Shown piece by piece: positions 33,714 through 50,020 of a stretch of 64,000 nt of DNA. Under the pieces are notes generated by a model, which was not told the origin of the DNA, ran no database searches, and was given only the letters and a program-made list of their open reading frames with translations. The position numbers and the translations under genes were made by a program. The DNA is from Phycisphaerales bacterium. GTDB lineage: Bacteria > Planctomycetota > Phycisphaerae > Phycisphaerales > UBA1924. How positions within the stretch are numbered: position 1 is the first letter of the stretch; each line of letters begins with the position of its first letter. Location: NCBI GenBank assembly GCA_038225655.1, contig JBBRQY010000003.1, positions 265,323 to 329,322 of the forward strand, read 5' to 3'.

Positions 33714-33785
33714 GCGGGCGTAGCTCAATGGTAGAGCATCAGTTTTCCAAACTGAATGTTGCGCGTTCGAGTCGCGTCGCCCGCT
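33714..33785 (+). tRNA. trnW: tRNA-Trp (anticodon CCA)
   Basis: GCGGGCG...CGCCCGC acceptor stem, 'TAGCTCAATGGTAGAGC' D-arm, anticodon loop TTCCAAA, 'GTTCGAGTC' T-arm. No encoded CCA. Confidence 0.9.
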
Positions 33786-33787
33786 TT
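33744..33787 (+). repeat. attL (44-bp direct repeat, 3' part of tRNA-Trp)
   Basis: tttccaaactgaatgttgcgcgttcgagtcgcgtcgcccgcttt, identical to 49926-49969. Confidence 0.9.
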
Positions 33788-33894
33788 GGATAAGTTGCCG
33801 GATCGCAAGGATTTGCGAGGCCTCCCGAGTGTTCGGGAGTGCGGCCAAACCAGCGTCCGCCGTGGTTCATACCACGGCGTGCAGGAGCCGCACT

Positions 33895-35178
33895 ATGTCC
33901 GCGCCCACAACTCCATCGCCCCGCCTCCCTCAGATGCTCGTGTACGCCCCCGCCGGCCGCGTCACGAAAGACGGCCAACCCTACCGCCGATTCCGTGTAC
34001 GCGTGAAGGGGCAAGACATTCCTCTGGGTCCGTGGGGTCCGGACGACTCGCCCGAGCATCAGCGAGCCACGATGAAGTACCGCGGCATCTGCGCCGACCT
34101 TCTGCGCCACGGGAAGGTATGCAGCAAGCCGGATGTGCTCACCGTCGGATCGCTCATCGACTTGTACCTCAACGAACTCGCGAGGCGGGACGCGGCGATT
34201 GATCCGCCTGGACGCAGCGAACCGAACGGCCGATCGATTCTCAAGAAACTTCGTGCTGGTTTCGCGCCGGAACGAGCCGCGGACTTTTCCGTGCCCAAAC
34301 TTGTGCATTGGCGCCTCGCCCTCGCCGAGACGGTCGATGATCGCGGAGTCCGGCTCAGCCGCGGCTATCTCAACAGCAAGGTGATCCCGACAATCGTGCG
34401 CATGTTCCGGTGGGCTCAGGACAAAGGACTCATCGAAGGCGAGCGATGGAAGGGCAATCCGAAGGACGTGGTTACGCCGCTCGCGAAGGGCGAGACTTCA
34501 GCGCCGAACCTCGAAGCAAGGGAGATGGCGGAGGGGATTGTCGTCGATCAGGTGCTTCCGCACCTACTCCCCTATGTCCGCGACGTGGTACAACTCATCC
34601 GTTTGACCGGGGCTCGCCCATCGGAAATCTGCCGACTCACCTGTGCGATGATCGACACTTCGCGGGCCGACGTGTGGGTCGTGGATTTGAAGCAGAACAA
34701 GAACGCCCACAGAGGGAAGATGCGAGTGATCACGTTCGACGCATCGGCGCAGGAGATTCTTTGCCGCCACAGGGATCCCCACCGCCCCTATGCCTGCATC
34801 TTCACGGGCGGACGACTCAAAGAGGCCAGCGTTCGAGCGAAACACGCCGGCCGGAACAGCACGCCGACGCCGGCACAGCTTGCGGCGATGGCGAAGGCCA
34901 CTGAGGATCGACTTGCCGACGCCAAACCGCTCGACCCGTCCACCGTTCAGGACCACGTGCGCCTTGCGTGCGTGGAGCACGGAATCGCACCGTGGACGCT
35001 GTACCAGCTCCGACATGCGGCCATCACCGAGGCGGACGACTTGGTAGACGAAGGCGTAGCGCAGGACGTTGCCGGGCATTCCTCCGCGGCGATGACCAAA
35101 AAGTACAAGCACAATCAGATCAACCGGGCCGTGAAGGCACGCCGCGCCGTCACCGCTGCGAAGGCCGCGGCTCACTGA
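33895..35178 (+). CDS. int: tyrosine-type site-specific integrase
   Basis: 'GARPSEICRL', 'LYQLRHAAIT', 'GHSSAAMTKKYKH' (R...H-x-x-R...H...Y). Start placed at ATG 33895. Confidence 0.9.
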   Translation: MSAPTTPSPRLPQMLVYAPAGRVTKDGQPYRRFRVRVKGQDIPLGPWGPDDSPEHQRATMKYRGICADLLRHGKVCSKPDVLTVGSLIDLYLNELARRDAAIDPPGRSEPNGRSILKKLRAGFAPERAADFSVPKLVHWRLALAETVDDRGVRLSRGYLNSKVIPTIVRMFRWAQDKGLIEGERWKGNPKDVVTPLAKGETSAPNLEAREMAEGIVVDQVLPHLLPYVRDVVQLIRLTGARPSEICRLTCAMIDTSRADVWVVDLKQNKNAHRGKMRVITFDASAQEILCRHRDPHRPYACIFTGGRLKEASVRAKHAGRNSTPTPAQLAAMAKATEDRLADAKPLDPSTVQDHVRLACVEHGIAPWTLYQLRHAAITEADDLVDEGVAQDVAGHSSAAMTKKYKHNQINRAVKARRAVTAAKAAAH

Positions 35179-35333
35179 GACGCATTGCAAACCACAACTC
35201 TACACAATATAACATTGCGATTGGCCATCATGGACACTCAAGGACAGTCATTGACAATCACGGCCGAAAATGATGTGTTTTGGTGTGACTTGGTTGGGTT
35301 CGGTGTCGCGGATTGTCGCCATTTGACCCCATC

Positions 35334-35362
35334 TTGACTTATGTCTGGCATAGGGGCACAAT
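35334..35362 (+). promoter_or_regulatory. sigma-70-like promoter candidate TTGACT-17-CACAAT
   Basis: TTGACT at 35334-35339 and CACAAT at 35357-35362, within a visibly AT-richer intergenic stretch. Confidence 0.3.
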
Positions 35363-35402
35363 GGGACGTACTGGCGTCACCCAAAACACAAAGGAACCCA
35401 TT

Positions 35403-35714
35403 ATGCCGCTATCGCCAGCGTCCAAGCCCCCCGCAATCACACTCGAAACCCTCCGCGAAACGCGGCTCACGTTCAAGGCTGCCGCGAAACTCGCGGGCGT
35501 GGATCAGACATCCGTTTGGCGATGGGCCATGACCGGCCTCCGCGGCGTCAAGCTGCCGACCATCCACATCGGCAGGGGGCACTTCGTCACCGAGCCTGCC
35601 CTTCTCGACTTCCTCAACAAGATCAACGACAAGGGGCCCGCCGACGTGTCCCACCTTGTCGAAGCCCGTCAAGAAGCCCGTAAGCCCCGCCGATCGCGAC
35701 GCCGCGCGGCCTGA
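35403..35714 (+). CDS. small HTH DNA-binding protein (DUF1580-like)
   Basis: 'LTFKAAAKLAGVDQTSVWRWAMTGLRGVKLPTIHIGRGHFVTEPALLDFL'. Confidence 0.6.
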   Translation: MPLSPASKPPAITLETLRETRLTFKAAAKLAGVDQTSVWRWAMTGLRGVKLPTIHIGRGHFVTEPALLDFLNKINDKGPADVSHLVEARQEARKPRRSRRRAA

Positions 35715-35738
35715 TTCAGTTCGATCCCGATTTGATCT

Positions 35739-36188
35739 GTGAATGCTCGGGCTGCCGCATCACCAACGGCCCGGGCAGAAGTTGTCCCTCACATGAAACC
35801 TATCCGGTCGGACAAGGAACGTCCAGCCCCGGCCACGAATCCCTTGGCCCAGTGGCTCCGCGCCCAGGCCGCGGCGTTCGTCGCGCAGGCGGAAGCGATC
35901 GAGCGAGGCCATCAGAGCGAGACGATCACATGCCCCGGGCTGGATCGGATGGACGTGGCGATTCTTCGCGTGCTCGCCGCGCACCCTTTGCATCGTGTTC
36001 TCGCTGCCGATCTATCCGACGGTGGGCATCGCGACATCGGCCGTCCAAAGGCCGTGGGCATCCGCCTCCGTCAACTCCACAACAGCGGCTTTGTCGATTT
36101 CCCCGTCGGTAGCCATCGCGGCGCCCTCATCACCGGCCGGGGACTTGCTGCCGTGCGTGCAGATGACGTGCAAGTGACGCTCAAATGA
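35739..36188 (+). CDS. hypothetical winged-helix-like protein
   Basis: 'MDVAILRVLAAHPLHRVLAADL...GIRLRQLHNSGFVDF' is MarR/wHTH-like. The start may instead be at 35793 (MKPIRSD). Confidence 0.5.
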   Translation: MNARAAASPTARAEVVPHMKPIRSDKERPAPATNPLAQWLRAQAAAFVAQAEAIERGHQSETITCPGLDRMDVAILRVLAAHPLHRVLAADLSDGGHRDIGRPKAVGIRLRQLHNSGFVDFPVGSHRGALITGRGLAAVRADDVQVTLK

Positions 36189-36224
36189 CCGCTTCGCCAA
36201 AACCGCCCGGAGGATACTTCCCAC

Positions 36225-36776
36225 ATGTCCGAGCCACAACGACTTTTCAACGTCCGGCAACTCTCCCGACATCTCAGCGTGTCTCAAAAGTGGCTGCGAC
36301 TAGAGGTGGAGGAGAATCGACTCCCCTGCATTCGCATCCGCAAGAATGAAATGCTGTTCGACGCCGAGACAGTCGAAACGATTCTGGCTGAGCGAGCAAA
36401 GCTCGGCGATGGCCGTGTCGTCACGAACTACTTCACGCCAGCGGTTCCGGCGAGGCACGTTGGAGGCGTGCATCGGAAGGCGATTCAGCTCTTCGGGGAT
36501 CTGCTGGCTGTGACTTGGGATTGCAACCACCCCGCGCGAGCCGAGTCGGTGCGTGCCCTGCTCTCCGAAATCGGGATCGATGTGAACGTCACGATGTCTG
36601 GCGAGCTTTCCCAAAAGACGCTTGAATGGCTCGTTGCTCAGTGCCCCGCGTGGCCGGTCGATGCCCAATGGGCACCACCGTCGAGAACTCCGCGCCCCAC
36701 GCAGGAAGCGATAGACGCGGCCGCTCCCCTCAACGGAAAGGACTCCGATGCCCCGTCGTCCCCAATCGCATATTGA
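36225..36776 (+). CDS. HTH (excisionase/MerR-like) domain protein
   Basis: 'LFNVRQLSRHLSVSQKWLRLEVEENRLPCIRIRKNEMLFDAETVETIL'. Confidence 0.6.
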   Translation: MSEPQRLFNVRQLSRHLSVSQKWLRLEVEENRLPCIRIRKNEMLFDAETVETILAERAKLGDGRVVTNYFTPAVPARHVGGVHRKAIQLFGDLLAVTWDCNHPARAESVRALLSEIGIDVNVTMSGELSQKTLEWLVAQCPAWPVDAQWAPPSRTPRPTQEAIDAAAPLNGKDSDAPSSPIAY

Positions 36777-36999
36777 CCACCACGCCGCGGCCCGATGGCT
36801 GTGCGGCGGACCCGTGCGTGATATGCCGCTCGCGCAGCGGCTCATTCGTCACTTCGTGGCGACCGGCCACTGGCGCGAAGTCAGCCGGGATGGCGTCGTT
36901 GGCTTCGACCTCGCGGACCTGAATGCGTGGCTCGTGTGGTGGCACTCGCCATCGTCGGACCTGGCACAGCCGCCGTTCGCGTCTCGGAGGGCGGCATGA
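36748..36999 (+). CDS. hypothetical small protein
   Basis: ORF track 83 aa. Its TGA overlaps the next gene's ATG (ATGA at 36996-36999). Start uncertain. Confidence 0.4.
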   Translation: MPRRPQSHIDHHAAARWLCGGPVRDMPLAQRLIRHFVATGHWREVSRDGVVGFDLADLNAWLVWWHSPSSDLAQPPFASRRAA

Positions 37000-37916
37000 A
37001 GATCAACATTGCACTGATCCGGACCGATGGCCAGACGCAGCCGCGCGAGCGGTTGGATACGAATGTGGTCAGCGACTACGCCGAGATGCTCGACGCGCTC
37101 CCGCCGGTGACGGTCTTTCGCGAAGGGAACAATTACTGGCTGGCCGACGGCTTCCATCGACACGCCGCGCACGTCAAGGCAAAACTCGAACAGATAAGTG
37201 CCGACGTTCGGAACGGCACTGTTGACGATGCCCGTCTGTTCGCCGCTGGAGCCAATGCCGCCCACGGGCTTCGTCGAACGATCGCGGACAAGCGGCGCGC
37301 CGTGCGGATCGTCCTATGGCACCCGTTGGCCGAAGACTGGTCTGACCGCCAAATTGCGACTCACTGCGGGGTGTCTCACACGTTCGTTGCGCGGTCGCGG
37401 CTTGATCTCAATGGCGCAGTTGTGGCCCGCTCCGACACAAAGCCGAACCCGGAACCCGCGACCCTTCCCACCGATGCCGTGGCCGATCCGAGCTCGGGCC
37501 CGCCGGAGCGTCCAACCGCAAAGACCGAGTTGCCGAAAGGCCTGGACCCCGATGTAGCGATGAAGCTGCTTGCTGCGATCGCGCAGTCGGACGTGCTGCG
37601 ACGGCTCAAACTTGATCTGGACGCGATCGCGCGCCGAGTCGAACAGTGCAGAGAGAACACGGCAGCTCGCCAGTTTCCATTTCAGCAATTTGTGAGACCC
37701 TTCCGCGAGGTGACGCTCTATGTCTGGAACGCGGAGCCGTTCTGCACATGTCCTGAGCCCCACGCGGGCCAACCCGGATGCCGCCTTTGTGCTTCCACGG
37801 GTTGGCTCACTCGCGGCGCGTTCCACAACTCCGCAATTCCGAAAGACCACAAGCAAGCGTGCTGGTTCTTCCGCGACGGCGATTGGTTGACCGCTGAGCA
37901 AGCGGGAGAGCTGTGA
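36996..37916 (+). CDS. ParB-like N-terminal (ParB/Srx nuclease-like) domain protein with C-terminal Cys cluster
   Basis: 'MKINIALIRTDGQTQPRE...VTVFREGNNYWLADGFHRHAAH' is ParB N-terminal domain-like. C-terminus 'CTCPEPHAGQPGCRLCASTGW'. Confidence 0.7.
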   Translation: MKINIALIRTDGQTQPRERLDTNVVSDYAEMLDALPPVTVFREGNNYWLADGFHRHAAHVKAKLEQISADVRNGTVDDARLFAAGANAAHGLRRTIADKRRAVRIVLWHPLAEDWSDRQIATHCGVSHTFVARSRLDLNGAVVARSDTKPNPEPATLPTDAVADPSSGPPERPTAKTELPKGLDPDVAMKLLAAIAQSDVLRRLKLDLDAIARRVEQCRENTAARQFPFQQFVRPFREVTLYVWNAEPFCTCPEPHAGQPGCRLCASTGWLTRGAFHNSAIPKDHKQACWFFRDGDWLTAEQAGEL

Positions 37917-38527
37917 CGGCCGCCAAGCTCAACACGTCATGGCCGACGAATCTCCCCGCGGACGCTCAGGCGCTCTGGGAGAGTATCGTCGGCCTCGTGC
38001 TCGAGCAGCCCCAGCCGGACGAACGCTGGCGGCTGGTGGTCCTTGGCCTGGCTCGTGGAGTGAAGTTCTCACACTTCACCCGCGACTTCACGCAGCCCCA
38101 ACTAGACACGCTCGCCCGGTTCGCCTTTGACACGATCGACTATCTTCGCCGCGGACACGAGCGCGACGAGACGGTGGCGGCATTTCGCACGGCCCACGAA
38201 CGGGCAAAATTCCCGCTGCCGGGTTTCTTTGCGACCATCGCGTTTTCGCAGGCACGAACGGCGCCACTTCCTTCCGCCGCGAAGCGATACGAGGATGATT
38301 CGCTCCGCATGCTCGTGGCCGGGTGCCACGAGCTGCAGCGCATGGCCGGGGATAGCCCGTTCGTCCTCACGTGCCGGGATGCCGGCCGAGAGATCGGACG
38401 TCACCACGAGACCGCGCATGACTATCTCAAGATGCTGGTCCGCGACGGCGTTCTGGAGAAGGTTTTTGCGGGCAAAGCCGGATCAGGCTGGGGCTGCGCG
38501 GCTAAGTTTCGATTCGTCACTGTCTAA
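37913..38527 (+). CDS. hypothetical protein with C-terminal wHTH-like segment
   Basis: ORF track 204 aa, GTGA overlap with the previous gene. 'HETAHDYLKMLVRDGVLEKV'. Confidence 0.5.
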   Translation: MTAAKLNTSWPTNLPADAQALWESIVGLVLEQPQPDERWRLVVLGLARGVKFSHFTRDFTQPQLDTLARFAFDTIDYLRRGHERDETVAAFRTAHERAKFPLPGFFATIAFSQARTAPLPSAAKRYEDDSLRMLVAGCHELQRMAGDSPFVLTCRDAGREIGRHHETAHDYLKMLVRDGVLEKVFAGKAGSGWGCAAKFRFVTV

Positions 38528-38578
38528 CCTTCGCACCCCGCTCCGGAACATGCAACACCCACAGCAGAGGTATAGACC

Positions 38579-38899
38579 ATGAACGAGGAACAGCAGGCCA
38601 AGGTGAACGTGTGGCTCGCCAAGATGCAGGAAGTCGGCGGCACTGAATACCAGACCTATCGGCAGGCGATGGACTCTCTGTATGCAGAGCTCGATGAGGT
38701 AGTGTTGAACGAGGTGGTCCGCCTCAACGATCTGCAACTGCAGAAGGCGATTTTGACATGGAGCGGCCCACTGAGAGCATCGCTTTGCTCAAGCGGATTC
38801 AACAGGACGGGGACCATGCTCGACGAGTGGCGAGAGGTCGCGGCAAGCCGCCTTCTTCAACCTGACCGGCGCCAGCTCGGCACGTATTCGGGTGCGTGA
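38579..38899 (+). CDS. hypothetical protein (3' half doubtful)
   Basis: ORF track 106 aa. The first ~60 aa look protein-like. The tail overlaps the convergent gene 38857-39267. Confidence 0.35.
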   Translation: MNEEQQAKVNVWLAKMQEVGGTEYQTYRQAMDSLYAELDEVVLNEVVRLNDLQLQKAILTWSGPLRASLCSSGFNRTGTMLDEWREVAASRLLQPDRRQLGTYSGA

Positions 38900-39267
38900 A
38901 TGACGTGCTGATCGATGTACTGAAGCACGCTGGGCAACAGGAATAGCTTGGTGCCTCGTCGCACTCGGAAGCCGCAAAGTCCGTCGGCGCGGAGCTTGGC
39001 GATCTCGGTGCTGATCTGCGATTCGGCGCACTCGACCCGAAGAAACTCCAGCACTTCGCGGCTCGTCATCACGAACGGAGCGGGCCGACCGGACGGCATC
39101 CAATAGGCCTCGCGGACAGTGACGCCTCCCACGGGAACCTGGACGGGTTTGGTGGCGTCGCCGATGCGCTCGGCAAGTCTGGCCGGCTCGTTGCGTCCGC
39201 CGCCGGATCTGCGTTGGTACGGCACCTGTGGCGTAAGCGGTGACGGCTGGGGCTTGTCGTTCATCAT
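38857..39267 (-). CDS. HTH (excisionase-like) DNA-binding protein
   Basis: 'MTSREVLEFLRVECAESQISTEIAKLRADGLCGFRVRRGTKLFLLPSVLQYI'. Start at MMNDK. Confidence 0.5.
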   Translation of the reverse strand: MMNDKPQPSPLTPQVPYQRRSGGGRNEPARLAERIGDATKPVQVPVGGVTVREAYWMPSGRPAPFVMTSREVLEFLRVECAESQISTEIAKLRADGLCGFRVRRGTKLFLLPSVLQYIDQHVIHAPEYVPSWRRSG

Positions 39268-39374
39268 CCCAATATACACGCGCGTGTGTGTAGGTTTGTG
39301 CTGGTTTGTAAACGTCTGTCAATGACACGCTTGCAGTCCGGTCGTTCGCAAATGAGTCGCCGTAGACTGACCAC

Positions 39375-39500
39375 ATGAACCCCGCGCGCTGGATGATCGC
39401 GTATCGCGCCGTCGTCGTGGCCCTGCTCGCCGCCATCGCCCTGGGCGTATTGATGCTCGTGGCCAAAGTCTGCCACGGAACCCTTGACGTTTGGCGGTAG
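39375..39500 (+). CDS. 41-aa single-pass hydrophobic peptide (not in ORF track)
   Basis: Manual translation: MNPARWMIAYRAVVVALLAAIALGVLMLVAKVCHGTLDVWR*. Third codon positions are strongly G/C, as in the real genes here. Confidence 0.4.
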   Translation: MNPARWMIAYRAVVVALLAAIALGVLMLVAKVCHGTLDVWR

Positions 39501-39521
39501 CGAGGCCGACGGCGGAGGGGT

Positions 39522-39740
39522 CTATTTCGATCGTCGCCGGGTCTTCTTGTGGCCGCGGCCGACCGTGATGCCGGCCGCGAGCGCCGAGACCTCGGAAACG
39601 TCTACCAAAGTGGCCTGAAGGTTTCGCACCATCACCGTCTGCGATCGCTTCAGCCGATCCGTCGCGAGCCACCGCGCCACCGTCGCCCGGTCGATGCCCA
39701 CCTTTGACGCCGCATCCCGCATGGTCATCATGTCGCCCAT
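39522..39740 (-). CDS. small HTH repressor/Cro-like protein
   Basis: 'MRDAASKVGIDRATVARWLATDRLKRS'. Transcribed divergently from the 39893 gene. Confidence 0.7.
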   Translation of the reverse strand: MGDMMTMRDAASKVGIDRATVARWLATDRLKRSQTVMVRNLQATLVDVSEVSALAAGITVGRGHKKTRRRSK

Positions 39741-39747
39741 ATGGGGG

Positions 39748-39817
39748 ATTGTAGCACGTGCGATATTTGACGCAACTTGTCAAATCAGATTGACAGATAC
39801 AGCACGTGCGGTATTCT
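39748..39817. promoter_or_regulatory. divergent promoter/operator (genetic-switch-like) region
   Basis: AGCACGTGCG occurs twice (39753-39762, 39801-39810). Leftward -10 TACAAT (complement of 39748-39753). Rightward TTGACA (39790-39795)-16 nt-TATTCT (39812-39817). Inverted TTGAC/GTCAA at 39768-39783. Confidence 0.45.
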
Positions 39818-39892
39818 TTCCGATAGCAAGGGACCGCCGCGAGTGACGTTACCACTCGGACGGCCCCGCGAAACTGCATCGAAAGGAACTCC

Positions 39893-40123
39893 ATGAACTC
39901 TACCACCCCCAACAGCAGCCCAGCCCGCGAAGCCACATACCTCGCCCTGTTCTGTGCCGCCCTGTCCGGTGCCACCATCGCCGCGGGCCCCGATGCACAT
40001 GCCATCGACGTGGCCACCCGAGCCACTGACCTCGCCGACCTCGCCATGAGCGCCATCGACAAGGCCGGGTGCCCCGGTGTCGAGAAGCCGCAACGCTCCA
40101 GCCGACTCCGAATCGCAGTGTAA
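39893..40123 (+). CDS. hypothetical small protein
   Basis: ORF track 76 aa. AAGGAA-type RBS a few nt upstream of the ATG. Confidence 0.45.
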   Translation: MNSTTPNSSPAREATYLALFCAALSGATIAAGPDAHAIDVATRATDLADLAMSAIDKAGCPGVEKPQRSSRLRIAV

Positions 40124-40223
40124 ACCGGTCCCAAAGCTACTCGAAACTCTTGGAAGACGACCGCCCCTGGCACATGCTGGGGGCGTTGTCGTTCCATGCC
40201 TAGTCTCAGGACAGGCCCATACC

Positions 40224-40307
40224 GACAGAGAGACAGAGACACAGAGAATTTACACGACCCTTCCGTGTATCTCTGTCGCCCAAATCGGTACAAGTCTCTG
40301 TCGCCCA
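40224..40307. repeat. iteron-like repeat cluster
   Basis: Three tandem 8-mers ACAGAGAG/ACAGAGAC/ACAGAGAA (40225-40248). Two copies of CTCTGTCGCCCA (40271-40282, 40296-40307) in the inverse orientation. Confidence 0.7.
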
Positions 40308-40745
40308 TTCCACCCGGCAACGTTGCCACTCCGGCCGGTCCGCCGGCGTCTACGTCGGTGCGCGTGCGCGCTTCTGAAACATTTTGGTCCCACCTCCCCA
40401 CGCCGTTCCCGCCCTCGCCGTGGCACGTTGCCACCCATCGAGAACGCCGCCGGACGCTGTACCACGCACCTACACCACGATGCCCCGCCCTCGCTCGGCG
40501 GGCTTGGACCGTGTTTCAAGGTGGTTTCAACACGCCTTCAACGGCGCACGCTCAGCCAGTTCAGATGACACTCCACCCAACGAGGGGCGAATCGAGTGCC
40601 GCCCGCAGGCCGATGGGGTGGCACGGGGGAGCTGGGCGCGTAGAGATGGGTCGATCGACTCGCGCAGAACTCTGAGAAAAAATCTTCCAAGGGTCCAAAA
40701 CTTCTGAGCCGATACATAGATGGCGGTATATATTTACCGCGATCA

Positions 40746-41405
40746 ATGCAGTCGTCACGGCTGATGCCCGAGGGCAACCCGCGAACGAGTGCGAGGACCG
40801 ACCACGTGCACCACTTGCTTTCTGCTGACCAGCATCGCTTCTTGAGCCGCAACCGCTTGGTGATGCGGCATCGCTCTGTTGCCCCGACCGACGTGAGTGT
40901 CGATGTCCTGGGAAACATGAGCCACTCGCCGGCGCTCATCGAGCTCGACATCATCGACGATCACGATGCAGTGCTGGTCTGCGAGCGCGGCGACAGCGAA
41001 CCCGAGTTGATCGCGAAGCTCTTTTCTGAGGCCAATCGCGTTTTGCCGGTGTTCGCGGAGAGTCGCGCGAACGACCGTGAAGCTGCGATGGCGAAGCAGG
41101 CGAAGGAACATCGCCTGTGGCAGATACTCAACAACATCGTCGATCTTCGGCCGAACGAATCTTGGCCGCCAAACTGGGTCTCCACGCTCGACGATTTCTC
41201 CCGGCCGGGCGGCTTCCCCAACACTGTGGGGTGTCTGGCGCACAAAGAGATTCTTGCCGCCGTCGCGGTGCTTCGGCATTGGGTGTCTCTCCACCGACAG
41301 CTCGTCAATGCTGCTTCGGTCGAGCACGCCGACGTGCCGGCAGAGATCGTCAAGATCGAGGCATCGCTCCCCTGGCTCTTTAGTCTCGCGCGGGAGGCCC
41401 CATGA
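40746..41405 (+). CDS. hypothetical protein (start uncertain, possibly about 40917)
   Basis: ORF track 219 aa. The C-terminal two thirds look protein-like. No motif recognised. Confidence 0.45.
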   Translation: MQSSRLMPEGNPRTSARTDHVHHLLSADQHRFLSRNRLVMRHRSVAPTDVSVDVLGNMSHSPALIELDIIDDHDAVLVCERGDSEPELIAKLFSEANRVLPVFAESRANDREAAMAKQAKEHRLWQILNNIVDLRPNESWPPNWVSTLDDFSRPGGFPNTVGCLAHKEILAAVAVLRHWVSLHRQLVNAASVEHADVPAEIVKIEASLPWLFSLAREAP

Positions 41406-41427
41406 CTCATATTGGAGCTAAAGCATC

Positions 41428-41799: not shown

Positions 41800-41808
41800 G
41801 AACCCCCC

Positions 41809-42384: not shown

Positions 42385-42397
42385 GAACCGATTGCGA

Positions 42398-42814
42398 ATG
42401 ACCGAAGCACCGCCACAGACCAGTTCCCAGGTGCCGCCAGCGCCAGCCCGCAAGGTGTCCGTGCCGCTCGGTCAGCGAGAACTACTGCGAGCGAGTGAAG
42501 TGATGGCGATTTTCGGGTGGAAGCGTTCGAAGTTCTACGAGCACCTTCGCGAGTACAGGATTCCGCAGCCCGTCGAAGTGGGAGAAACGAAATTCTGGCG
42601 AAGACGCGAGCTTGCGGATTGGGTGGACGCAGGAGCACCGAACGTCGGCATGCGGGGTGACCATTGGAAGTGGGAGCCGGGCGTTCGGATGAAGCTCTCG
42701 ATCGTGCATGCGCAAATGGCCAGGCAACTCTCCGAGATGCGCACCGAGTGGAACCTGTTGGATGAACTGCTGAAAAAGGGCGATCGGATCATCAACCTAC
42801 GGAGCACCCAATGA
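42398..42814 (+). CDS. AlpA/excisionase-like HTH protein
   Basis: 'LLRASEVMAIFGWKRSKFYEHLREYRIPQPVEVGETKFWRRRELADWV'. Confidence 0.6.
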   Translation: MTEAPPQTSSQVPPAPARKVSVPLGQRELLRASEVMAIFGWKRSKFYEHLREYRIPQPVEVGETKFWRRRELADWVDAGAPNVGMRGDHWKWEPGVRMKLSIVHAQMARQLSEMRTEWNLLDELLKKGDRIINLRSTQ

Positions 42815-43056
42815 ACACCTACACCCCCGACCATCTCGTCCTCATCGCCGCGGCCGATCGCCGTCGCGTCCGGTGCTCGCCCGATCGTTTCCGTGACATG
42901 CTCTCCATCATCCACACGCCGCGCAGGATCGGATTCGGAGACACACTCAGGCGCGTTAACGGCACTGCGCGGTATGTCTTCACGCCGCTCACGATCGCCA
43001 TCGCCCTCGCCTTCACTCACCACGCGCCGCGGCGTCGGAATTCTCAACATGTCTGA
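42811..43056 (+). CDS. hypothetical small protein
   Basis: ORF track 81 aa. ATGA overlap upstream, and an 8-nt overlap with the next gene. Confidence 0.4.
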   Translation: MNTYTPDHLVLIAAADRRRVRCSPDRFRDMLSIIHTPRRIGFGDTLRRVNGTARYVFTPLTIAIALAFTHHAPRRRNSQHV

Positions 43057-45301
43057 CGACTATTCCGCCCTCGAAAATGGCTCGCCCAACGGGCCGCGCC
43101 GCATCCCACGCATCGGCTCCACGCCAAACCTCCCGCAGAACGTCGGGCCGACGAGTCTCGAACTGCCTTTTACCCCAGCCTATCCCTCCAATGGCGAGCG
43201 GATGGCGGATCAGTTGAGCCAGGCACTTGGACTCGCGGGGCAGGCCGGTAACGAACTCAATCACATCGCCCGCCAGCAACTGGAGCGCGACGCCGCCTTT
43301 GTCACGCGGAACGCCACCGAGCAACGGCATATGGATGAGTTGCGGAAGGGTGCAGGTGCCAACGCGTTTGCCATCGATCATCCTCAGGTCGCGTCCGATT
43401 TTGCCAACGGCAAACTTCCCGTTCCCATCGATGATCCGACCGACACCGTGAAGACCCTCGTCGAGGGGAGGATTCAGAAGTTGGAGTTGGACTCGGTAGC
43501 GGCGGACGAATTTCGCCGGCACGCCTACCCCGCCTACACCGGTCTCGCCGTCGCCGCCCGCGACAAGAATCGCGAGACCGCGAAGGCAGATTCATTCTCC
43601 CTGTTCGGCGACCGCGCCGTGCAGGCATCATCGGCGGACGAACTCGCTGCACTCTCGGCCAAGGCGAAGGAGATGTTTCCTTCCGCCACCGCCGATGAAA
43701 TCGCCGTCGCGATCCCCCTTCGTGCGATGGCAGACGCCGCGCACGTGGGCGACCCGGAGAAGTTTGCTGCCGCTCAGCAGGAACTCGGCACACGATTCGG
43801 TGACAAACAAGACATTGCCAAAGTGCTCCTCAACGACTCCGTTCGACGCAACCAATCGGCCGTGGACATGCAGTTTGAGGATGCCGTGTCGTCGAAGTAC
43901 GGCCAGCCCGCCGCCATCATCCGGCAGACCATCAACAGTTGGCAGGGCAAGGCCAGCCCTGAACGCATCCGCACCGAACTCCGGTCGGTCGATTCCGAGG
44001 AACGTGCTGCAAACGCCAAGGCGTACAGCGAGGCCAAGGCCATAGATCTGGAAAACCAGAAGGCCGATTTGGTCGCGAGCACGATCGAACTGATGCGAAG
44101 CGCCCGCGCCACTGGGGGCGCATCGCAGATTCCCGATCGCGTGCCGATCCAAGACCTCGACGGAGCCACGCATTACGTCCCTCGATCCGAAATGGTCGGA
44201 CCGGCCACGGATGCGGAGATGTTCCGGCTTGCGAAGATGCCGCCCGAACGCGCACTACCCGCACAGGTGGAGTTTTTGTCGAACAACGGGGAAACCTACG
44301 ACGGATGGAAACGAGTGATGGAAGCGGGGCCGATGGTGAGCAGCATCGACATCGACAAGGCCGGCCCGAAGGACATCCCCTCGAATCTGAGCAAGGGCTA
44401 CGCGTTGTACAAGAGCATCGGGGCCATCAATCCCCGCACACGCGACCGGCACATTCCCGACGCCTCCACGGGCCGATTTTACGAATTGGCAGAGCTCGCC
44501 GAGAAATACGTCACGCCGGGCGATCCCAACGCCGCACTGCTGTATGCAATGCGAGCCGCCAAGCGAGAGCCGTTCGGCGACAACCCCGCGCTGCAGGTGC
44601 GATCACAGCTCATCAATGACGAGATTGATCGCCGCGCGAGCAGCGGCTTGCTGTGGTGGAAGCAAACCGTCAACAACCCCAACGAAGTTGGAGCCGAGAC
44701 CGCTCGCGTCGCGGACCTCTATGTTCACTCGCTGGGCATTAGCCCCCAGTTGGCCGTCGATGAAGCTTCCAAACGCATCGACGCCAACTGGACCGTCGTA
44801 AACGATTGGGCGGTGCCAACCCGCGGACGCAACGTCCCCAGCGTGCTCCCCGCGGCCGCGAAGGTCATCGCCGACGAATACGCGAGGGTGCATGGAGCCG
44901 ACGAGGGGCTCACCGCCCGCGACCTGGTACTCCAGCCCGCCGACGTGCCGGGCTTGTGGGTGCTGACGAACAAGGCCACGCTCTCGCCCGTGAAATACTG
45001 GGCGACCGAAGGCCGCTTTACCGACTCCGACTTCGGCAAGCTACTCACCGACCTGCAGCGCGGCAAGGAAGATGCCGCCGCCGCGGAGGTTTCCCACGGG
45101 ATGAATCTGCCCGGCGCGTTCAAGAACGATCGCGACATGTTCAATGAGGCCGTGCGTTCTCGCATCACCGGTGATCCCATGCTGGCCGACCTACTGCCCG
45201 CCCCGCGCGTCGATCCCAAGCCCACACCGAAGCCGGTGCCTCGACCAGCTCCCTCTTCCTTCATGCCTGACATCCCCGGATCCGCACTCTCTCTCCCCTG
45301 A
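43049..45301 (+). CDS. large ORFan protein (750 aa)
   Basis: Start at ATG 43049 (MSDDYSALENGS...). Long alpha-helical-looking sequence with a Pro-rich C-terminus. No motif recognised. Confidence 0.75.
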   Translation: MSDDYSALENGSPNGPRRIPRIGSTPNLPQNVGPTSLELPFTPAYPSNGERMADQLSQALGLAGQAGNELNHIARQQLERDAAFVTRNATEQRHMDELRKGAGANAFAIDHPQVASDFANGKLPVPIDDPTDTVKTLVEGRIQKLELDSVAADEFRRHAYPAYTGLAVAARDKNRETAKADSFSLFGDRAVQASSADELAALSAKAKEMFPSATADEIAVAIPLRAMADAAHVGDPEKFAAAQQELGTRFGDKQDIAKVLLNDSVRRNQSAVDMQFEDAVSSKYGQPAAIIRQTINSWQGKASPERIRTELRSVDSEERAANAKAYSEAKAIDLENQKADLVASTIELMRSARATGGASQIPDRVPIQDLDGATHYVPRSEMVGPATDAEMFRLAKMPPERALPAQVEFLSNNGETYDGWKRVMEAGPMVSSIDIDKAGPKDIPSNLSKGYALYKSIGAINPRTRDRHIPDASTGRFYELAELAEKYVTPGDPNAALLYAMRAAKREPFGDNPALQVRSQLINDEIDRRASSGLLWWKQTVNNPNEVGAETARVADLYVHSLGISPQLAVDEASKRIDANWTVVNDWAVPTRGRNVPSVLPAAAKVIADEYARVHGADEGLTARDLVLQPADVPGLWVLTNKATLSPVKYWATEGRFTDSDFGKLLTDLQRGKEDAAAAEVSHGMNLPGAFKNDRDMFNEAVRSRITGDPMLADLLPAPRVDPKPTPKPVPRPAPSSFMPDIPGSALSLP

Positions 45302-45307
45302 CCGCCC

Positions 45308-48300
45308 ATGCCTGACATCGCCGACCTTGTACCCTCGACCGACTTTGCGCCACCCGCTTCCTCGCCATCGTCCGCGCCGGTTCCGCCACCCGGACTGTGG
45401 CAGATCGGCAAGGATGCCGCGTCCTCGGAGTGGGTGTCATCGTGGGCCATCCGGCAGTTTGATCGCGCGGCCTACACCTACGACCCGTACTTCTCGCTGG
45501 ATGCCGACAAGGTGAAGTCGCTCGGCGATGGGCTCCCGGTGGAGTATTGGTCGAGATTCGGCGAAGCACAGAGTGACACAGAAGCGCAGGCCATCCGCCG
45601 GCAACTGCTGGACGTGTACGGTGCTCGCCAGCGGCTCGGACAAGCAGGGTGGACCGGCCGGGCGGCTCAGATCGGTGCGAGCATCATCGACCCCGCCGCG
45701 ATCGCCGTGACGCTCGGCACGGCCGGGCTCGGCGGGGAGGTTGCGTACGGGGGCAAGGCCGCCCGTCTGGGGATGTTGCTCCGTTCCGGTCTCGCCGTGG
45801 GTGGAGTCAATGCCGGATTGGAGGGATACCGCGCTACACAGGATCCAGAAGTAGGGACCGCCCAGGTACTCGGCGCAGGACTTGGCGGGTTCGGGTTCGG
45901 CGTCGGCTCCGCTGCGACTCGCGGGCTGGGCCGTGGTGCTCGCGTGCTGGGTGCAGGGCTGGGGCAAAGCATCCCGACCATGGCCGTTGACACCATCGAC
46001 GCCCTGACGGACGATCAGAAGACCGCCCGCGACGTGGTGTACGCCGGGGCGTTCTCGTTTGCGATGGGTGGTATCCTCAACGGGCTCCATCGCACCGACC
46101 CTGGCGAGCGCGACGCGGCCATCCGGGCTCGCAAGGCCATCGAACTCGAGGACGTGAAGACTTCCGGGGCGACAGTGACCCCGAAGGGCGAGGCTTACTT
46201 TCGCGACGTGAGTCCCGACGCCGAGGCCCAGACCGTCGCCCGGCTCACGGACAAGACTGAAGCCGCCCCAGGTGCCGTGGTGTCTCCGCTACCCGCCGAG
46301 GCCACTGCGCGACCGCTCACTGAACTTGAACGCATCGACGCCGAAGTCTCTGCCACGCTCAAGGGCCAACAACCCAAGGTACGGGCTGAAGCGTTCGCCC
46401 GCGAGATCATCACGTCGGGCTGGTTCGACCCGGCAACCCAGAAGGCCACGCTACGCGAGGAACTCGTAAACCGCTTCGGCGTTGGCGCCGGGGTGGCCGA
46501 CCGGATGATCACACGCATCAGCCCCGAGGCCCCCCCCACCCCCACCGCCGCCGGCGAGAAGCTCCGACAGCCCGCCCTATCCCTCGCCGAGCATGCTGAA
46601 CTTGATCGTCGCCTCGCCGAAGTGCCCACCGCGCCCGCCGATGACACCGGCATGCGAATCGGTGGGAACAAACTGGGCCAGGGCGTGCGTCCTGCCATTG
46701 CTGATCAGATTGCCGCCGACGCCGCGCCGGTTTTTGGCGAACGGCTCCAGATTCCCACCGGTGCCGTCCCCGAGTCTCTGCGCCCATCAACCCCGGGCGA
46801 GAAACTGCACCTCCCGGCCATGCTCAATGCCGAAGAGGCCGCCGCCCGCCGCTACGACTACTCAGAACTCGGTGGCCAGTCCGTCACGTTCTCCGACGCC
46901 TTCGCCCTGGCCAAGGCCCTCAACGAAGCCACGCCTGGCCGCGACTACGCCGTCGTGGAGACCGGCGACGGCTTCACCGTGGCGAGCCGCAAGGTGTCCG
47001 AACCCGTCGCCCCCAAGGGCAGGCCCCGCGACGTGGCGACGTATGTGCCGCCAGAGCCGATGAAGATGCCCAAGCTCGTGCGGGCGACTCCGGCCGAGAT
47101 CGCTCTCCGCTCCGAAATGCTGCGAACCGCCGTGCCGACGATGGACCGGGCCGACGCCGTGGACATCGCCGGGCGGGAGATCGCCCGCGAGCGTGCACAG
47201 CAAGTCGTCGAGCAGCTCCACCCTGCCCCTCGCGATCCCGACTCACCTGGTCCCCAGTTTGCCATCGGGGCCGCGTCTCAGTCCGCGATGGAGGCCGGGC
47301 TGTACGAACAGGCCACCCAGCGGGGCGAAAAACTCCCCGGCGACTTGAACCTCTCGAACACCACCGACGCGGGGGCGTACAACCCAAGCGTCGTGGGCGT
47401 CAATGTTCGCCAGAGCATTGCGGGGCTCAACGGGGTCAGCGAGTCCGGGGCCGTTCGCCGCCTCACTGCGATGCTCGTGGAAGACCCCACCGCCAAGGCC
47501 GACAACTCCCCCAGCCGCCAGTCTGCGAGCGAGTGGGGCCGCCTCAAGTTTGAGACAGATGTCAACCGCTTCCTCCGCTCGCACTTTGACGACTTCGTGG
47601 ACTGGGCGAACCGCAACGGCAAGCCCGTGTCGATGCTCCGCCCTTTCGCCCGTGCCAAGGCGTTTGCTGAGTTTTCCGAGATGGTGGGCCGGGCTGTGCG
47701 CCGCGAAGAGGGCGCATTCAGCGACGATCCCGCCGTCAACCGTGCCGCGAATAATGTCCGCGACGGTCTCGACAAACTCTGGATGCTCCAGAATCGGTAT
47801 CAGGTGCCCGGCTTCGACCAGGTGACGCCGGCGCACAACTACTTGACCAGAATCTGGAACCTCACGAAGCTGAACGCCCTGACCGAACGATTCGGGGCCG
47901 CCACCATCGAGAAGCTCGTCGCCCAGGCCATCGAGAACCGCACGCCGAATGTCGGCACGGAGCGGGCGACAATCTTCGCCAAGGGGATGCTCCGCACGAT
48001 TCGCGAGGCCAAGATGGGGTCGGAACTCGACCGGGGCCGCATCCTCGAGTTGCCCGACGTTGAAGTGCTCCGCAAGGCCATCCGCGACGCCGTGCCGGGC
48101 ATCAGCGATGCCACCGTCAATGACGTGCTCTATCACGTCGCCCCCGGCGAGGGCGACAACCTCCCGCCCCGGGCCCGCCGCCGCGTCATTCTAGACGAGA
48201 CCGCCAGCATCAACGCCATCGACCAGCGCACCGGCCAGCCCGCCCAACTGTCGATTGAAGACTTGCTGGAGAACAACGCCGCGAAGGTGTACGCCCGGTA

Positions 48301-49765
48301 CAGCCGTGATGCCTACGGCCGCTCCGCCGTCGCCGAAGTCATCCGGGCGAGCCGCACGAGCGACACCGACCCGCTCGACTCCGTGCAGGCCCTTCTCGAC
48401 CGGACCAGCCGCCAGGCGATGAGCGACTACGGCGTCACAAACCGCGATGCTGCAAAGAGTGTGGATGCCCAAATCGCTCGCCTCGAAGTCGCTTTCAAGT
48501 CCGTGCTTGGCCATCGACTTGGGGGGGACAGCCGACTTGCCGAAGGCGCTCGGTTGCTTCGCGCCTTCAACTACATGGCCGTCGGCGGTCGCGTCGGGCT
48601 CCACCACGCCCAGGACCTCGCCAGTGCCGTCGGGGAGGCGGGATTCGGCACCGTGCTCCGCTCCATCCCCTCTCTCGCCCGGCTCATCGCGTCGGCCGTG
48701 TCGGGCGAGATGAAGGATGAGACGATCCGCGAAGTCGAAGCCCTGTGGGCCGCGGGCACCGATCACTTCCGGGGCTCCATAGGGCACTACCTCGACCACG
48801 ACAGCCGTGTTCACTTCATGGGCGAGACCGCCGACGAGATGATCCGCGCCGGCGCCCGCACGATGAACGTCGTGAACTTCCTCGCACCCGTCGCCTCGTT
48901 CAACCAGCGGGCCGCCGCCATCTTCGCCGAACAGAAATGGCTCGACATTGCCAGGGCACGCAAGTCCATGAGCGTGGGCCGCCTCGCCGACATGGGGCTT
49001 ACTGTCCGCGAGGCCGACGACATCTCCGAGCAGATGCGACAGCACGCGACCACGCAGGCGGGGTTGTTCGGCCGCAAGATCGTCGCTGCCAACGTGAACC
49101 TCTGGGACGCTGACACCGCCGCCCGGTACATCGGGGCCGTGGATCGGTGGAGCCGCTCGGCCGTCGTTCGTGGGGACATCGGGCAACAGGCCAAATGGAT
49201 GACCAGCGACGCGGGCCAAATTTTGAGCCAGTTTCGGAACTTCACCATCGCCGCGCACGAGAAGAACCTCGTCCGCAACGGCCGCCGAATGGACGCCACC
49301 ACATTCAACAACTGGGCGATGACCACGCTCGCCGGTGCCATGGCCTACACCGTCAACGAGTACGTCAACTCTCTCGGCCGCAAGGATGCCGATAAGTACC
49401 GCCGCGAGAAACTCGACACGAAGGAAATCGCGAAGGCCGCATTTCAGCGCTCGTCCTGGTCGGCGTTCCTTCCCACCGCCATTGACACCGTGGCCACCGA
49501 CATCGGATACGACCCGCTGTTCGCGGGCGGACGATTCTCTGGGCTCTCGACCAACCTCGTCACCGGCAATCCGTCGTATTCGACGCTCGACTCGCTGTAT
49601 CACGCGCCGCACGCCCTCACCGCCCCGATGCACCGAGACTACCGCTTCTCACAGACCGATTTCCGCGTGCTCCGCAACCTGATCCCGTATCAGAACGCGT
49701 TCGGGATCAAGAACCTGCTGGACAGATTCGCCGAGGACTTGCCGCGGCGATCGAAGAACAATTGA
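45308..49765 (+). CDS. giant ORFan protein (1485 aa) with glycine-zipper hydrophobic region
   Basis: Starts 6 nt after the previous stop. Residues about 125-260 include 'IGASIIDPAAIAVTLGTAGLGG', 'AQVLGAGLGGFGFGVGSAA' and 'VVYAGAFSFAMGGILNGL'. Confidence 0.8.
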   Translation: MPDIADLVPSTDFAPPASSPSSAPVPPPGLWQIGKDAASSEWVSSWAIRQFDRAAYTYDPYFSLDADKVKSLGDGLPVEYWSRFGEAQSDTEAQAIRRQLLDVYGARQRLGQAGWTGRAAQIGASIIDPAAIAVTLGTAGLGGEVAYGGKAARLGMLLRSGLAVGGVNAGLEGYRATQDPEVGTAQVLGAGLGGFGFGVGSAATRGLGRGARVLGAGLGQSIPTMAVDTIDALTDDQKTARDVVYAGAFSFAMGGILNGLHRTDPGERDAAIRARKAIELEDVKTSGATVTPKGEAYFRDVSPDAEAQTVARLTDKTEAAPGAVVSPLPAEATARPLTELERIDAEVSATLKGQQPKVRAEAFAREIITSGWFDPATQKATLREELVNRFGVGAGVADRMITRISPEAPPTPTAAGEKLRQPALSLAEHAELDRRLAEVPTAPADDTGMRIGGNKLGQGVRPAIADQIAADAAPVFGERLQIPTGAVPESLRPSTPGEKLHLPAMLNAEEAAARRYDYSELGGQSVTFSDAFALAKALNEATPGRDYAVVETGDGFTVASRKVSEPVAPKGRPRDVATYVPPEPMKMPKLVRATPAEIALRSEMLRTAVPTMDRADAVDIAGREIARERAQQVVEQLHPAPRDPDSPGPQFAIGAASQSAMEAGLYEQATQRGEKLPGDLNLSNTTDAGAYNPSVVGVNVRQSIAGLNGVSESGAVRRLTAMLVEDPTAKADNSPSRQSASEWGRLKFETDVNRFLRSHFDDFVDWANRNGKPVSMLRPFARAKAFAEFSEMVGRAVRREEGAFSDDPAVNRAANNVRDGLDKLWMLQNRYQVPGFDQVTPAHNYLTRIWNLTKLNALTERFGAATIEKLVAQAIENRTPNVGTERATIFAKGMLRTIREAKMGSELDRGRILELPDVEVLRKAIRDAVPGISDATVNDVLYHVAPGEGDNLPPRARRRVILDETASINAIDQRTGQPAQLSIEDLLENNAAKVYARYSRDAYGRSAVAEVIRASRTSDTDPLDSVQALLDRTSRQAMSDYGVTNRDAAKSVDAQIARLEVAFKSVLGHRLGGDSRLAEGARLLRAFNYMAVGGRVGLHHAQDLASAVGEAGFGTVLRSIPSLARLIASAVSGEMKDETIREVEALWAAGTDHFRGSIGHYLDHDSRVHFMGETADEMIRAGARTMNVVNFLAPVASFNQRAAAIFAEQKWLDIARARKSMSVGRLADMGLTVREADDISEQMRQHATTQAGLFGRKIVAANVNLWDADTAARYIGAVDRWSRSAVVRGDIGQQAKWMTSDAGQILSQFRNFTIAAHEKNLVRNGRRMDATTFNNWAMTTLAGAMAYTVNEYVNSLGRKDADKYRREKLDTKEIAKAAFQRSSWSAFLPTAIDTVATDIGYDPLFAGGRFSGLSTNLVTGNPSYSTLDSLYHAPHALTAPMHRDYRFSQTDFRVLRNLIPYQNAFGIKNLLDRFAEDLPRRSKNN

Positions 49766-49925
49766 CGGCGTTCATCGCTGGTTCCGCACGTCTTGCCTCG
49801 TGGTATTCGTACCACAAGCCAACGCAATCACGTGAGATTTGCCTCGTTTTTGCACAGACTTGCACCAAGTGGCGATTAGTGCTATTCTTGCTGTGAATCC
49901 GCTGTTTTTGGCATCGGCACCCGTC

Positions 49926-49969
49926 TTTCCAAACTGAATGTTGCGCGTTCGAGTCGCGTCGCCCGCTTT
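49926..49969 (+). repeat. attR (44-bp direct repeat, tRNA-Trp 3' fragment)
   Basis: Identical to 33744-33787. Confidence 0.9.
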
Positions 49970-50020
49970 TCCTGTTCATTGGCACCCCACGCCGCACCAT
50001 CGAATCCACGGAGATTCCCC

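Follow-up and report, generated by a model that had tools for sequence, protein, structure and literature searches.

What kind of element occupies the 16.18 kb behind a tRNA gene in the chromosome of this Phycisphaerales bacterium (Planctomycetota), and what can it still do? We examined the locus in a 64-kb window (positions 265,323 to 329,322 of contig JBBRQY010000003.1, assembly GCA_038225655.1), hereafter called the window, and call the segment itself the island. The island is a phage-derived integrative element, inserted by its own integrase into the 3′ half of a tRNA-Gly(UCC) gene. Its gene content indicates that it descends from temperate T7-like (Autographiviridae-type) podoviruses and that the parts it appears to have kept are an integration module, helix-turn-helix (HTH) regulators around a repressor/promoter switch, a ParB-like early protein, and an operon ending in gp15 and gp16. 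We tentatively read it as a reduced, helper-dependent, satellite-like derivative of these phages that supplies its own ejection proteins, a reading to which we assign slightly less than an even chance.

The two giant open reading frames (ORFs) at the end of the island were the key to its origin. A first-pass annotation, made from the sequence without database searches, had pointed out that they occupy about 6.7 kb and had seen no recognizable virion genes in the island; the first statement was right, and the second has to be withdrawn. The 1485-amino acid ORF is an intact gp16-type internal virion/ejectosome protein, of which residues 13 to 1483 align to positions 208 to 1230 of the 1235-position phrog_342 profile ("internal virion protein with endolysin domain" in PHROGs) with an E value of 7.5e-119. 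It had tblastn matches in 345 phage genomes, and the genomes listed and genera named were all T7-like podoviruses or their relatives, including pelagiphages (HTVC134P), the Rhizobium phages TRX32-1 and RHEph01, and T7-like phages of Klebsiella, Pseudomonas, and Escherichia. An exhaustive HMMER search with the C-terminal 926 residues returned 2062 hits, and the island protein carries the family residue at 50 of the 50 invariant columns in a 12-sequence alignment. Neither Pfam nor NCBIfam revealed a lytic domain in it (SLT or other), the profile match beginning at position 208, and none was detectable in the five closest relatives tested (P0009, P0010, P0013, P0020, and P0021).

The 750-amino acid ORF, which the first-pass annotation had extended to 802 residues by starting at an upstream GTG, is a gp15-type protein. 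In tblastn searches, it aligned over 692 residues (1.5e-49) with the protein encoded between T7_gp14 and gp16 on the phage contig L093, and it also matched gp15 of L009 (1.6e-43) and L094 (3.6e-27); BLASTP linked it to the protein at the gp15 position of Rhizobium phage TRX32-1 (2e-10). It stops 6 nt before the gp16-like gene, so that the two genes form a gp15–gp16 tandem, and together these homologs make up 42% of the island. Pfam and NCBIfam had no match to either giant ORF, whereas PHROGs did. Word-indexed protein searches with the gp16-like protein, the gp15-like protein, or a three-sequence profile returned only the query itself, and exhaustive HMMER was needed to reach the relatives; a sequence search of the PDB gave nothing significant for either protein. 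This calls for caution with giant ORFans beside attachment (att) sites, since these often turn out to be divergent internal virion proteins, which escape Pfam and are caught by PHROGs. In T7, gp14, gp15, and gp16 form the internal core of the virion and are ejected to build a trans-envelope DNA channel, and both gp16 and transcription are coupled to the entry of the genome. By homology, the gp15- and gp16-type proteins of the island are predicted to be present in virions and to be ejected into the envelope.

The island is delimited by two sequence-identical 44-nt direct repeats. Their identity ends exactly at both edges and cannot be extended by one base on either side, and no third copy was found in the window with up to three mismatches allowed (0 expected by chance). 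The tRNA that supplies the left copy had been labeled tRNA-Trp in the first-pass annotation. ARAGORN instead identified a tRNA-Gly(TCC) as the sole tRNA in the window, and an Rfam scan supported a tRNA at this place (71.8 bits) and found nothing besides. Since the anticodon loop reads TTTCCAA, positions 34 to 36 are TCC and not CCA; the tRNA-Trp label came from taking CCA one base out of register. The 3′ 42 nt of tRNA-Gly form part of attL. Adjoining this tRNA gene, whose 3′ part thus recurs at the far end, is a tyrosine integrase gene (PF00589, 6.5e-13; phrog_1, 4.7e-22), in which the motif series ARPSE...LRH...GHSSxxMTxxY was recognized by eye; this is the arrangement expected of a tRNA-targeting tyrosine-recombinase integrative element. 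The flanks carry chromosomal genes, those for a sulfotransferase, citrate synthase, phosphoenolpyruvate mutase, and MeaB-type GTPase on the left and those for a PepSY-like protein, a pyridoxal phosphate enzyme, MutL, and quinolinate phosphoribosyltransferase on the right, and no phage-like genes were found in the window outside the island. G+C content does not differ between island (63.4%) and surroundings (63.6–64.8%). The GC skew changes abruptly at the left repeat, where about −0.29 gives way to about 0, and beyond the right repeat it is again between −0.17 and −0.35, which supports the boundaries independently of the repeats. Apart from the identity of the tRNA, these results bear out the first-pass description of an integrase next to a tRNA and a perfect 44-nt repeat bracketing the segment: the island is a discrete integrative element, its att repeats and its integrase are both intact, and it is unable to build a virion unaided.

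The last point was borne out by every approach that we used. No Pfam, PHROG, or NCBIfam match in the island corresponded to a portal, major capsid, tail tube (gp11), nozzle (gp12), gp14, or large terminase protein, and custom hidden Markov models (HMMs) for gp14 and the small terminase gene (terS) were negative. The same libraries revealed no phage DNA polymerase, primase-helicase, or single-subunit RNA polymerase, nor is any ORF large enough for one: besides the integrase, gp15, and gp16, the largest has 329 amino acids, which leaves no room for a portal, a nozzle, the large terminase (TerL), or a polymerase. The P-loop motif [AG]xxxxGK[ST] is absent from all six frames, so that no terminase, packaging ATPase, relaxase-coupling protein, or helicase is to be expected. 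Library scans, custom HMMs, P-loop scan, and ORF sizes therefore agree with the first-pass annotation, which had seen no P-loop and nothing resembling terminase, portal, capsid, tail, or primase/helicase proteins; the standard capsid/terminase/portal set, whose presence it had named beforehand as the sign of an ordinary small prophage, was not found in profile searches. Since capsid, portal, tail, terminase, and polymerase genes are missing, the island has no virion of its own and is neither an ordinary small prophage nor an autonomous virus. Judged by its genes, it is unable to produce capsids, tails, or a packaging motor or to replicate with a polymerase of its own. As in satellites, an incomplete set of virion genes is combined with integration and regulation modules that have been kept.

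Comparison with complete phages indicates where the island came from. The phage contig L009 has the order tube, Phage_nozzle, T7_gp14, gp15, gp16, an 85-amino acid gene (the terS equivalent by position), and TerL; L093 has nozzle, T7_gp14, gp15, and gp16; and TRX32-1 has the full T7 gene order. L094, a temperate T7-like phage seen over 16.3 kb of a 34.5-kb contig, carries a small HTH gene followed by gp15, gp16, a 92-amino acid gene in the terS position, TerL, several small genes, and an integrase gene, past which lie a leftward 267-amino acid gene, early genes, and the gene for a ParB-like protein. The last is 45% identical over 153 amino acids (tblastn, 3e-32) to the ParB-like protein of the island. 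When the island is drawn as a circle (integrase, ParB-like protein, HTH protein, gp15, gp16, att, integrase), it is collinear with L094 except for the lack of terS–TerL; the unseen 18 kb of L094 presumably hold the replication/head/tail block that is also lacking in the island. By this comparison, the island appears to be a reduced derivative of a temperate T7-like phage of the L094 kind. It is not a simple deletion product, as judged from three differences: its integrase is unrelated to that of L094, its ParB operon shares the orientation of the integrase gene and is located upstream of the switch, and genes for 219-, 123-, and 191-amino acid proteins and an AlpA-like protein stand where tube, nozzle, and gp14 would be.

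Two further observations concern gp15 and its surroundings in other genomes. In L094, the small HTH ORF directly upstream of gp15 (149–350) has an HTH resembling that of the ParB-like protein of the same phage (52% over 40 amino acids), which is encoded 15 kb away (15732–16301) and is the homolog of the island protein. The position of this HTH gene directly before gp15 suggests that a regulator gene before gp15 may be ancestral in this phage group. A gp15–gp16 pair with 34% identity to the window gp16 (protein P0020) borders a stretch of bacterial chromosome on metagenome contigs of up to 99 kb from ENA (L095, L096, and L097). Behind the pair there are no more than 212-, 75-, and 299/128-amino acid ORFs and leftward 161- and 74-amino acid ORFs before tRNA-Tyr and host genes (sigma-54 regulator, histidine kinase, and aminoacyl-tRNA synthetase), and a terminase is missing; each of the three assemblies breaks off directly upstream of gp16. 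This locus may be a further non-canonical integrated context for gp15–gp16.

The collinearity with L094 would also be explained by a defective (cryptic) prophage, that is, a T7-like phage that integrated at tRNA-Gly and then lost its replication/head/tail block and its terS–TerL block, the undecayed remnant having no transfer function. We regard this as the main rival reading and a serious possibility, albeit less likely than not. The gene order is the exact leftover of these two deletions from an L094-like genome, and deletional decay is the commonest fate of prophages. The 12 island proteins for which public gene calls exist (those of 72 to 1485 amino acids named below) remain singletons when about 15 billion proteins are compared at 90% identity, without near relatives, as would be expected of a one-off. 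No gene for packaging, replication, or helper exploitation was recognized. The first-pass annotation had taken the perfect att repeats as an argument against a decayed remnant; this argument is weak, since 44 bp are too small a target to record decay and hence the age of the insertion. Better arguments against decay are provided by the coding density of about 91%, without broken genes, by the intact 750- and 1485-amino acid ORFs with the complete set of invariant gp16 residues, and by a diverged sister element. Moreover, the second deletion would have had to stop within 160 nt of attR and leave it undamaged, and the early region is not simply L094-like, as described above.

This sister element is represented by the contig L008. 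The nearest relative of the window gp16, P0009, is 46% identical overall and 52% in the C-terminal part and is its sister in a neighbor-joining tree of 62 family members. This 1684-amino acid gp16-like protein is encoded at 3537–8591 of L008, a 14.4-kb Logan contig, on which the AT-rich block described below, a homolog of the 123-amino acid protein (1e-10), a homolog of the 191-amino acid protein (4e-7), and an AlpA homolog (4e-14) follow each other in the same order as in the window. A 148-amino acid ORF lies between the AlpA homolog and the gp16-like gene, and a gene scan of the contig found gp15, tube, nozzle, gp14, and terminase all absent. Downstream of gp16, L008 has leftward small genes and then a DDE transposase gene, tRNA-Met, and YajQ, which are host-like and unlike the right flank in the window, and no tRNA-derived attR was found there. 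The genes that replace tube, nozzle, and gp14 are thus conserved in order at another locus, and independent decay to the same layout is unlikely. On the basis of these alignments, the reduced operon probably arose once, is older than the roughly 50% protein divergence of its two carriers, and has changed its chromosomal locus, which is the behavior of a functional mobile element and not of a dead remnant. The P0009 protein has an insertion in its variable middle region (residues ~710–792) with a sub-threshold GNAT match (PF00583, 20.6 bits against a cut-off of 20.7; PF13508, 2e-4), which could represent an enzymatic cargo domain delivered with the ejectosome.

Several points weigh against reading the island as a satellite. 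L008 ends 3.5 kb upstream of gp16, so that its reduced state is deduced from collinearity, and the known family consists of two members, the second of which has no gp15. Relatives of the gp16 clade were not found in 185k species genomes; scans of IMG/VR with gp16, P0009, a two-sequence profile, the ParB-like protein, and the integrase gave nothing or spurious short matches; and a scan of JGI metagenomes gave no close relative and one distant one (24% identity). A mobile family that had been successful should be commoner in these databases. No pac/cos signal, small terminase, capsid-size-redirection gene, or replication initiator was recognized in the island. There is no known helper phage and none within the window. 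A separate 16,198-bp Logan contig of the island (L001, from SRR19962015) is not an excised circle, its length being the 16,138-bp interior plus 2 × 30 nt, as results when a k = 31 assembly breaks at a 44-bp repeat. A narrow literature search found no precedent for a satellite that carries ejectosome genes. As a side result, L001 illustrates that k = 31 unitigs bounded by att repeats can mimic excised circles.

With these reservations, a helper-dependent satellite remains our leading reading, as it had been one of two suggestions in the first-pass annotation; the other, a new kind of mobile element or virus, falls away because gp15/gp16 and the collinearity identify a reduced form of a known phage lineage. 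We infer excision, a helper and its identity, packaging, and the role of the element's gp15 and gp16 along the following lines. The 72-amino acid HTH protein would keep the element repressed until infection by, or induction of, a related T7-like helper, upon which the switch would open. The integrase together with the AlpA/Xis-type HTH protein would excise a 16.2-kb circle, which the helper terminase would package into helper-made capsids, and the gp15 and gp16 of the element would be loaded onto the portal as internal core. In the next infection, they would form the trans-envelope channel that delivers the element DNA. The 16.2 kb of the island correspond to about 0.38 of the 41–43-kb genomes of the best-matching related phages, and a ratio of this size is typical of capsid-shrinking satellites such as P4 with P2 and SaPI with 80alpha. 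An ejectosome of its own might allow the element DNA to enter without the transcription-coupled genome internalization of the helper; alternatively, it might provide an internal core that fits a smaller capsid.

A domesticated or defensive island, in which the gp15/gp16 homologs or other genes hinder incoming T7-like phages by poisoning the core or blocking the channel, appears improbable. The intact large ORFs imply selection, and the repressor-type switch and AlpA-type regulator could respond to infection; however, we know of no precedent for gp15/gp16 homologs as defense proteins, and mobility, not fixation, is suggested by the intact integrase and att sites and by the fact that the two family members occupy different loci. 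Satellites and prophages commonly carry anti-phage functions (cf. PMC13586616). In the island, PADLOC defense models gave 0 matches in the ten proteins scanned, a set that left out the gp16-like protein, the integrase, the 123-amino acid ORF, and the AlpA-like protein, among others. A similarly small share of probability falls to readings beyond the four considered here. It is very improbable that the island is an autonomous virus of a new kind or a self-transmissible element whose capsid or transfer machinery is concealed among the ORFans, since, although about nine island ORFs have no detectable homologs in Pfam, PHROG, or NCBIfam and remote folds are possible, the limit of 329 amino acids and the missing P-loop ATPase stand against it, and the recognizable parts all come from tailed-phage lineages that need a portal, a major capsid protein, and TerL.

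The features of the island are listed in the following table.

Table. Features of the island and its attachment sites (window coordinates; aa, amino acids; GC3, G+C at third codon positions; pLDDT, predicted local distance difference test; AF2, AlphaFold2)
Feature	Position	Strand	Evidence and remarks
tRNA-Gly, anticodon UCC (integration target)	33714..33785	+	ARAGORN; Rfam RF00005, 71.8 bits
attL core, first copy of 44-nt repeat	33744..33787	+	2 matches in window, 0 expected by chance
Tyrosine integrase	33829..35178	+	PF00589 6.5e-13; phrog_1 4.7e-22; start codon uncertain
133-aa HTH protein, candidate excisionase/regulator	35313..35714	+	weak DUF1580 and HTH_17 matches (E 5e-4 to 3e-3, below Pfam cut-offs)
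149-aa ORF	35739..36188	+	no family matches; start without public gene-call support
183-aa protein, weak N-terminal HTH_17-like region	36225..36776	+	E 0.027; gene call confirmed
83-aa ORF	36748..36999	+	no family matches; gene call confirmed
ParB-like N-terminal domain + HTH protein	36927..37916	+	phrog_1033 9.1e-15
204-aa ORF	37913..38527	+	no family matches; gene call; single-sequence AF2 model all-helical, pLDDT 40 (low confidence)
106-aa ORF	38579..38899	+	no significant matches; gene call
140-aa ORF, same direction as repressor-like gene	38857..39279	−	no family matches; GC3 0.75
72-aa HTH protein, repressor-like (cI/MerR/Xis-type) candidate	39522..39740	−	several weak HTH matches; phrog_66/2907/5301; gene call
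Divergent switch region	39741..39892		sigma-70-like promoter and flanking direct repeats
76-aa ORF, first rightward gene	39893..40123	+	one hydrophobic segment; gene call
Non-coding region, ~620 bp	40124..40745		TCTCTGTCGCCCA repeats and AT-rich block
219-aa ORF, first gene of operon	40746..41405	+	no family matches; gene call
123-aa protein, conserved in L008	41428..41799	+	BLASTP to L008:1398-1835, 1e-10; phrog_1018 1e-3 (weak, head-scaffolding)
191-aa helical protein, conserved in L008	41809..42384	+	BLASTP to L008:2098-2649, 4e-7
AlpA-like HTH regulator/excisionase	42392..42814	+	PF05930 4e-6; phrog_66 3.9e-7; L008 homolog BLASTP 4e-14
81-aa ORF	42811..43056	+	gene call
gp15-type internal virion/ejectosome protein, 750 aa	43046..45301	+	tblastn/BLASTP homology; gene call at 750 aa
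gp16-type internal virion/ejectosome protein, 1485 aa, intact	45308..49765	+	phrog_342 E=7.5e-119
attR core, second copy of 44-nt repeat	49926..49969	+	160 nt past gp16 stop codon

Public gene calls match the ORFs of 183, 83, 204, 106, 72, 76, 219, 123, 191, 81, 750, and 1485 amino acids; the exceptions are the integrase, the 133-, 149-, and 140-amino acid ORFs, and the starts chosen for the ParB-like and AlpA-like proteins. Apart from these exceptions, the agreement shows that the ORFs are not frameshifted fragments. Single-sequence AlphaFold2 models of the 204-amino acid (pLDDT 40) and 191-amino acid (pLDDT 45) ORFs were unusable and were not used.

Among the regulatory features, the first-pass annotation had correctly noted a ParB-like protein, several small HTH proteins (now an AlpA-like protein and weak HTH matches on the 133-, 183-, and 72-amino acid ORFs), and a divergent switch. 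In the switch, a TTGACA-16-TATTCT promoter (39790–39817, plus strand) is accompanied by two AGCACGTGCG[AG]TATT repeats, at 39753 and 39801, between which the promoter was placed; these repeats are candidate operators. A terminator-like hairpin (40162–40185) lies 3′ of the 76-amino acid ORF. What had been described as an iteron-like array in the non-coding region is reduced to two copies of TCTCTGTCGCCCA and one inverted partial copy (40223–40307).

The same region contains an AT-rich block (40651–40740) with the pattern TCGATCGAC...GAAAAATCTTC...CTGAG..ATAC.T...GTATA.AT, which is conserved at 648–740 of L008. Over 50 nt (window 40651–40700), the two are 78% identical, although the surrounding proteins are just 30% identical. 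Each element has the block once, immediately before the operon with gp16 at its end, of which it is a candidate promoter/control region; it may act as a promoter, a regulator site, an origin, or a packaging signal. A repeated phage-promoter-type motif was considered for it and rejected, the block being a single copy in each element. The rightward operon comprises the genes for the 219-, 123-, and 191-amino acid proteins, the AlpA-like protein, and the 81-, 750-, and 1485-amino acid proteins, in this order, and ends 160 nt short of attR. A scaffold function of the 123-amino acid protein is not established, the PHROG match in the table being the sole lead, and an assignment of the 191-amino acid ORF to gp14 was rejected because Pfam T7_gp14, pairwise BLASTP, and a custom HMM were all negative.

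The surroundings of the insertion site were compared with those in related genomes. The citrate synthase of the left flank is 90–94% identical to that in Phycisphaerales metagenome-assembled genomes, which identifies the host as a Phycisphaerales planctomycete, and in citrate-synthase neighborhoods of 80 Phycisphaerales loci, synteny reached tRNA-Gly in 0 of 80. The closest locus, L013 (92% citrate synthase identity), stops within the left-flank gene. No occurrence of the 44-nt att core was found in IMG/VR. The left-flank gene itself (window 32541–33848, minus strand) has a longest ORF of 435 amino acids that starts at a TTG and crosses tRNA-Gly into the island, so that the real start must be further downstream; its homolog in L013 is 54% identical, against 89–92% for the neighboring genes. 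In the flanks (1–33700 and 50000–64000), the minus strand carries most genes, and the GC skew is unusually negative, at −0.15 to −0.39 per kb. The island genes are on the plus strand, yet the skew of the island is about 0 and not mirror-positive. The coding strands of the island thus lack the strong G-over-C bias of the host at equal total G+C.

How the island differs from known systems can now be stated. With the gp15/gp16 proteins of the T7 group (PHROG 342; Autographiviridae and related podoviruses), it shares a near-full-length gp16 match and the gp15–gp16 tandem; it differs in having no detected lytic domain and no surrounding tube–nozzle–gp14...terminase block. With temperate T7-like phages such as vB_RleA_TRX32-1 (Paadamvirus) and L094, it shares a tyrosine integrase, tRNA-associated integration, gp15–gp16, and overall collinearity, and with the L094 type in particular the ParB-like early protein (45% identity) and the small HTH gene directly upstream of gp15. 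In contrast to these phages of about 40–43 kb, the island at 16.2 kb lacks RNA and DNA polymerases, primase-helicase, portal, scaffold, capsid, tube, nozzle, gp14, tail fiber, terS, and TerL. LUZ100 is a further example of a temperate T7-like phage for comparison (PMC10134795).

The resemblance to satellites (P4-like, PICI/SaPI, cfPICI, PLE, and PICMI) extends to a length of 10–20 kb, a tyrosine integrase, short att repeats, an AlpA-type regulator, a repressor switch, an incomplete virion gene set, and a size ratio of about 0.4. Unlike them, the island has no primase/replicase, terS, or recognized capsid-size-redirection gene, and its only virion genes are those of the ejectosome, which are not known from any described satellite family. 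To our knowledge, no satellites have been described in Planctomycetota. The Streptomyces satellites Mulch and MiniFlayer provide a precedent, as they reportedly keep part of the structural gene set while other essential modules are missing; they encode encapsidation machinery without replication genes, whereas the island lacks encapsidation machinery and retains internal core proteins (PMC10690885). Cryptic prophages of Escherichia coli (CP4-57, e14, and Rac) resemble the island in their incomplete complement of phage genes, in the placement of the integrase gene beside a tRNA or att site, and in the possession of an AlpA-type regulator, whose family PF05930 takes its name from CP4-57. They typically contain pseudogenes and insertion sequences and have lower coding density, none of which applies to the island, and the diverged sister with the same reduced operon elsewhere is another difference. 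It is less likely than not, though plausible, that the island and L008 would be the first family of satellites of T7-like podoviruses and the first satellites in Planctomycetota, bringing their own ejection machinery (gp16 with or without gp15) and not capsid, packaging, or replication genes.

If the island is a recently gutted prophage, it would be ordinary, yet a useful marker of temperate T7-like phages that infect Phycisphaerales. If it is mobile and depends on a helper, it would add T7-like podoviruses to the helpers of phage satellites and Planctomycetota to their hosts and reveal a new division of labor, in which the parasite brings the ejectosome and the helper everything else. It would then become testable whether and how the ejectosome proteins gp15 and gp16 decide which DNA is delivered.

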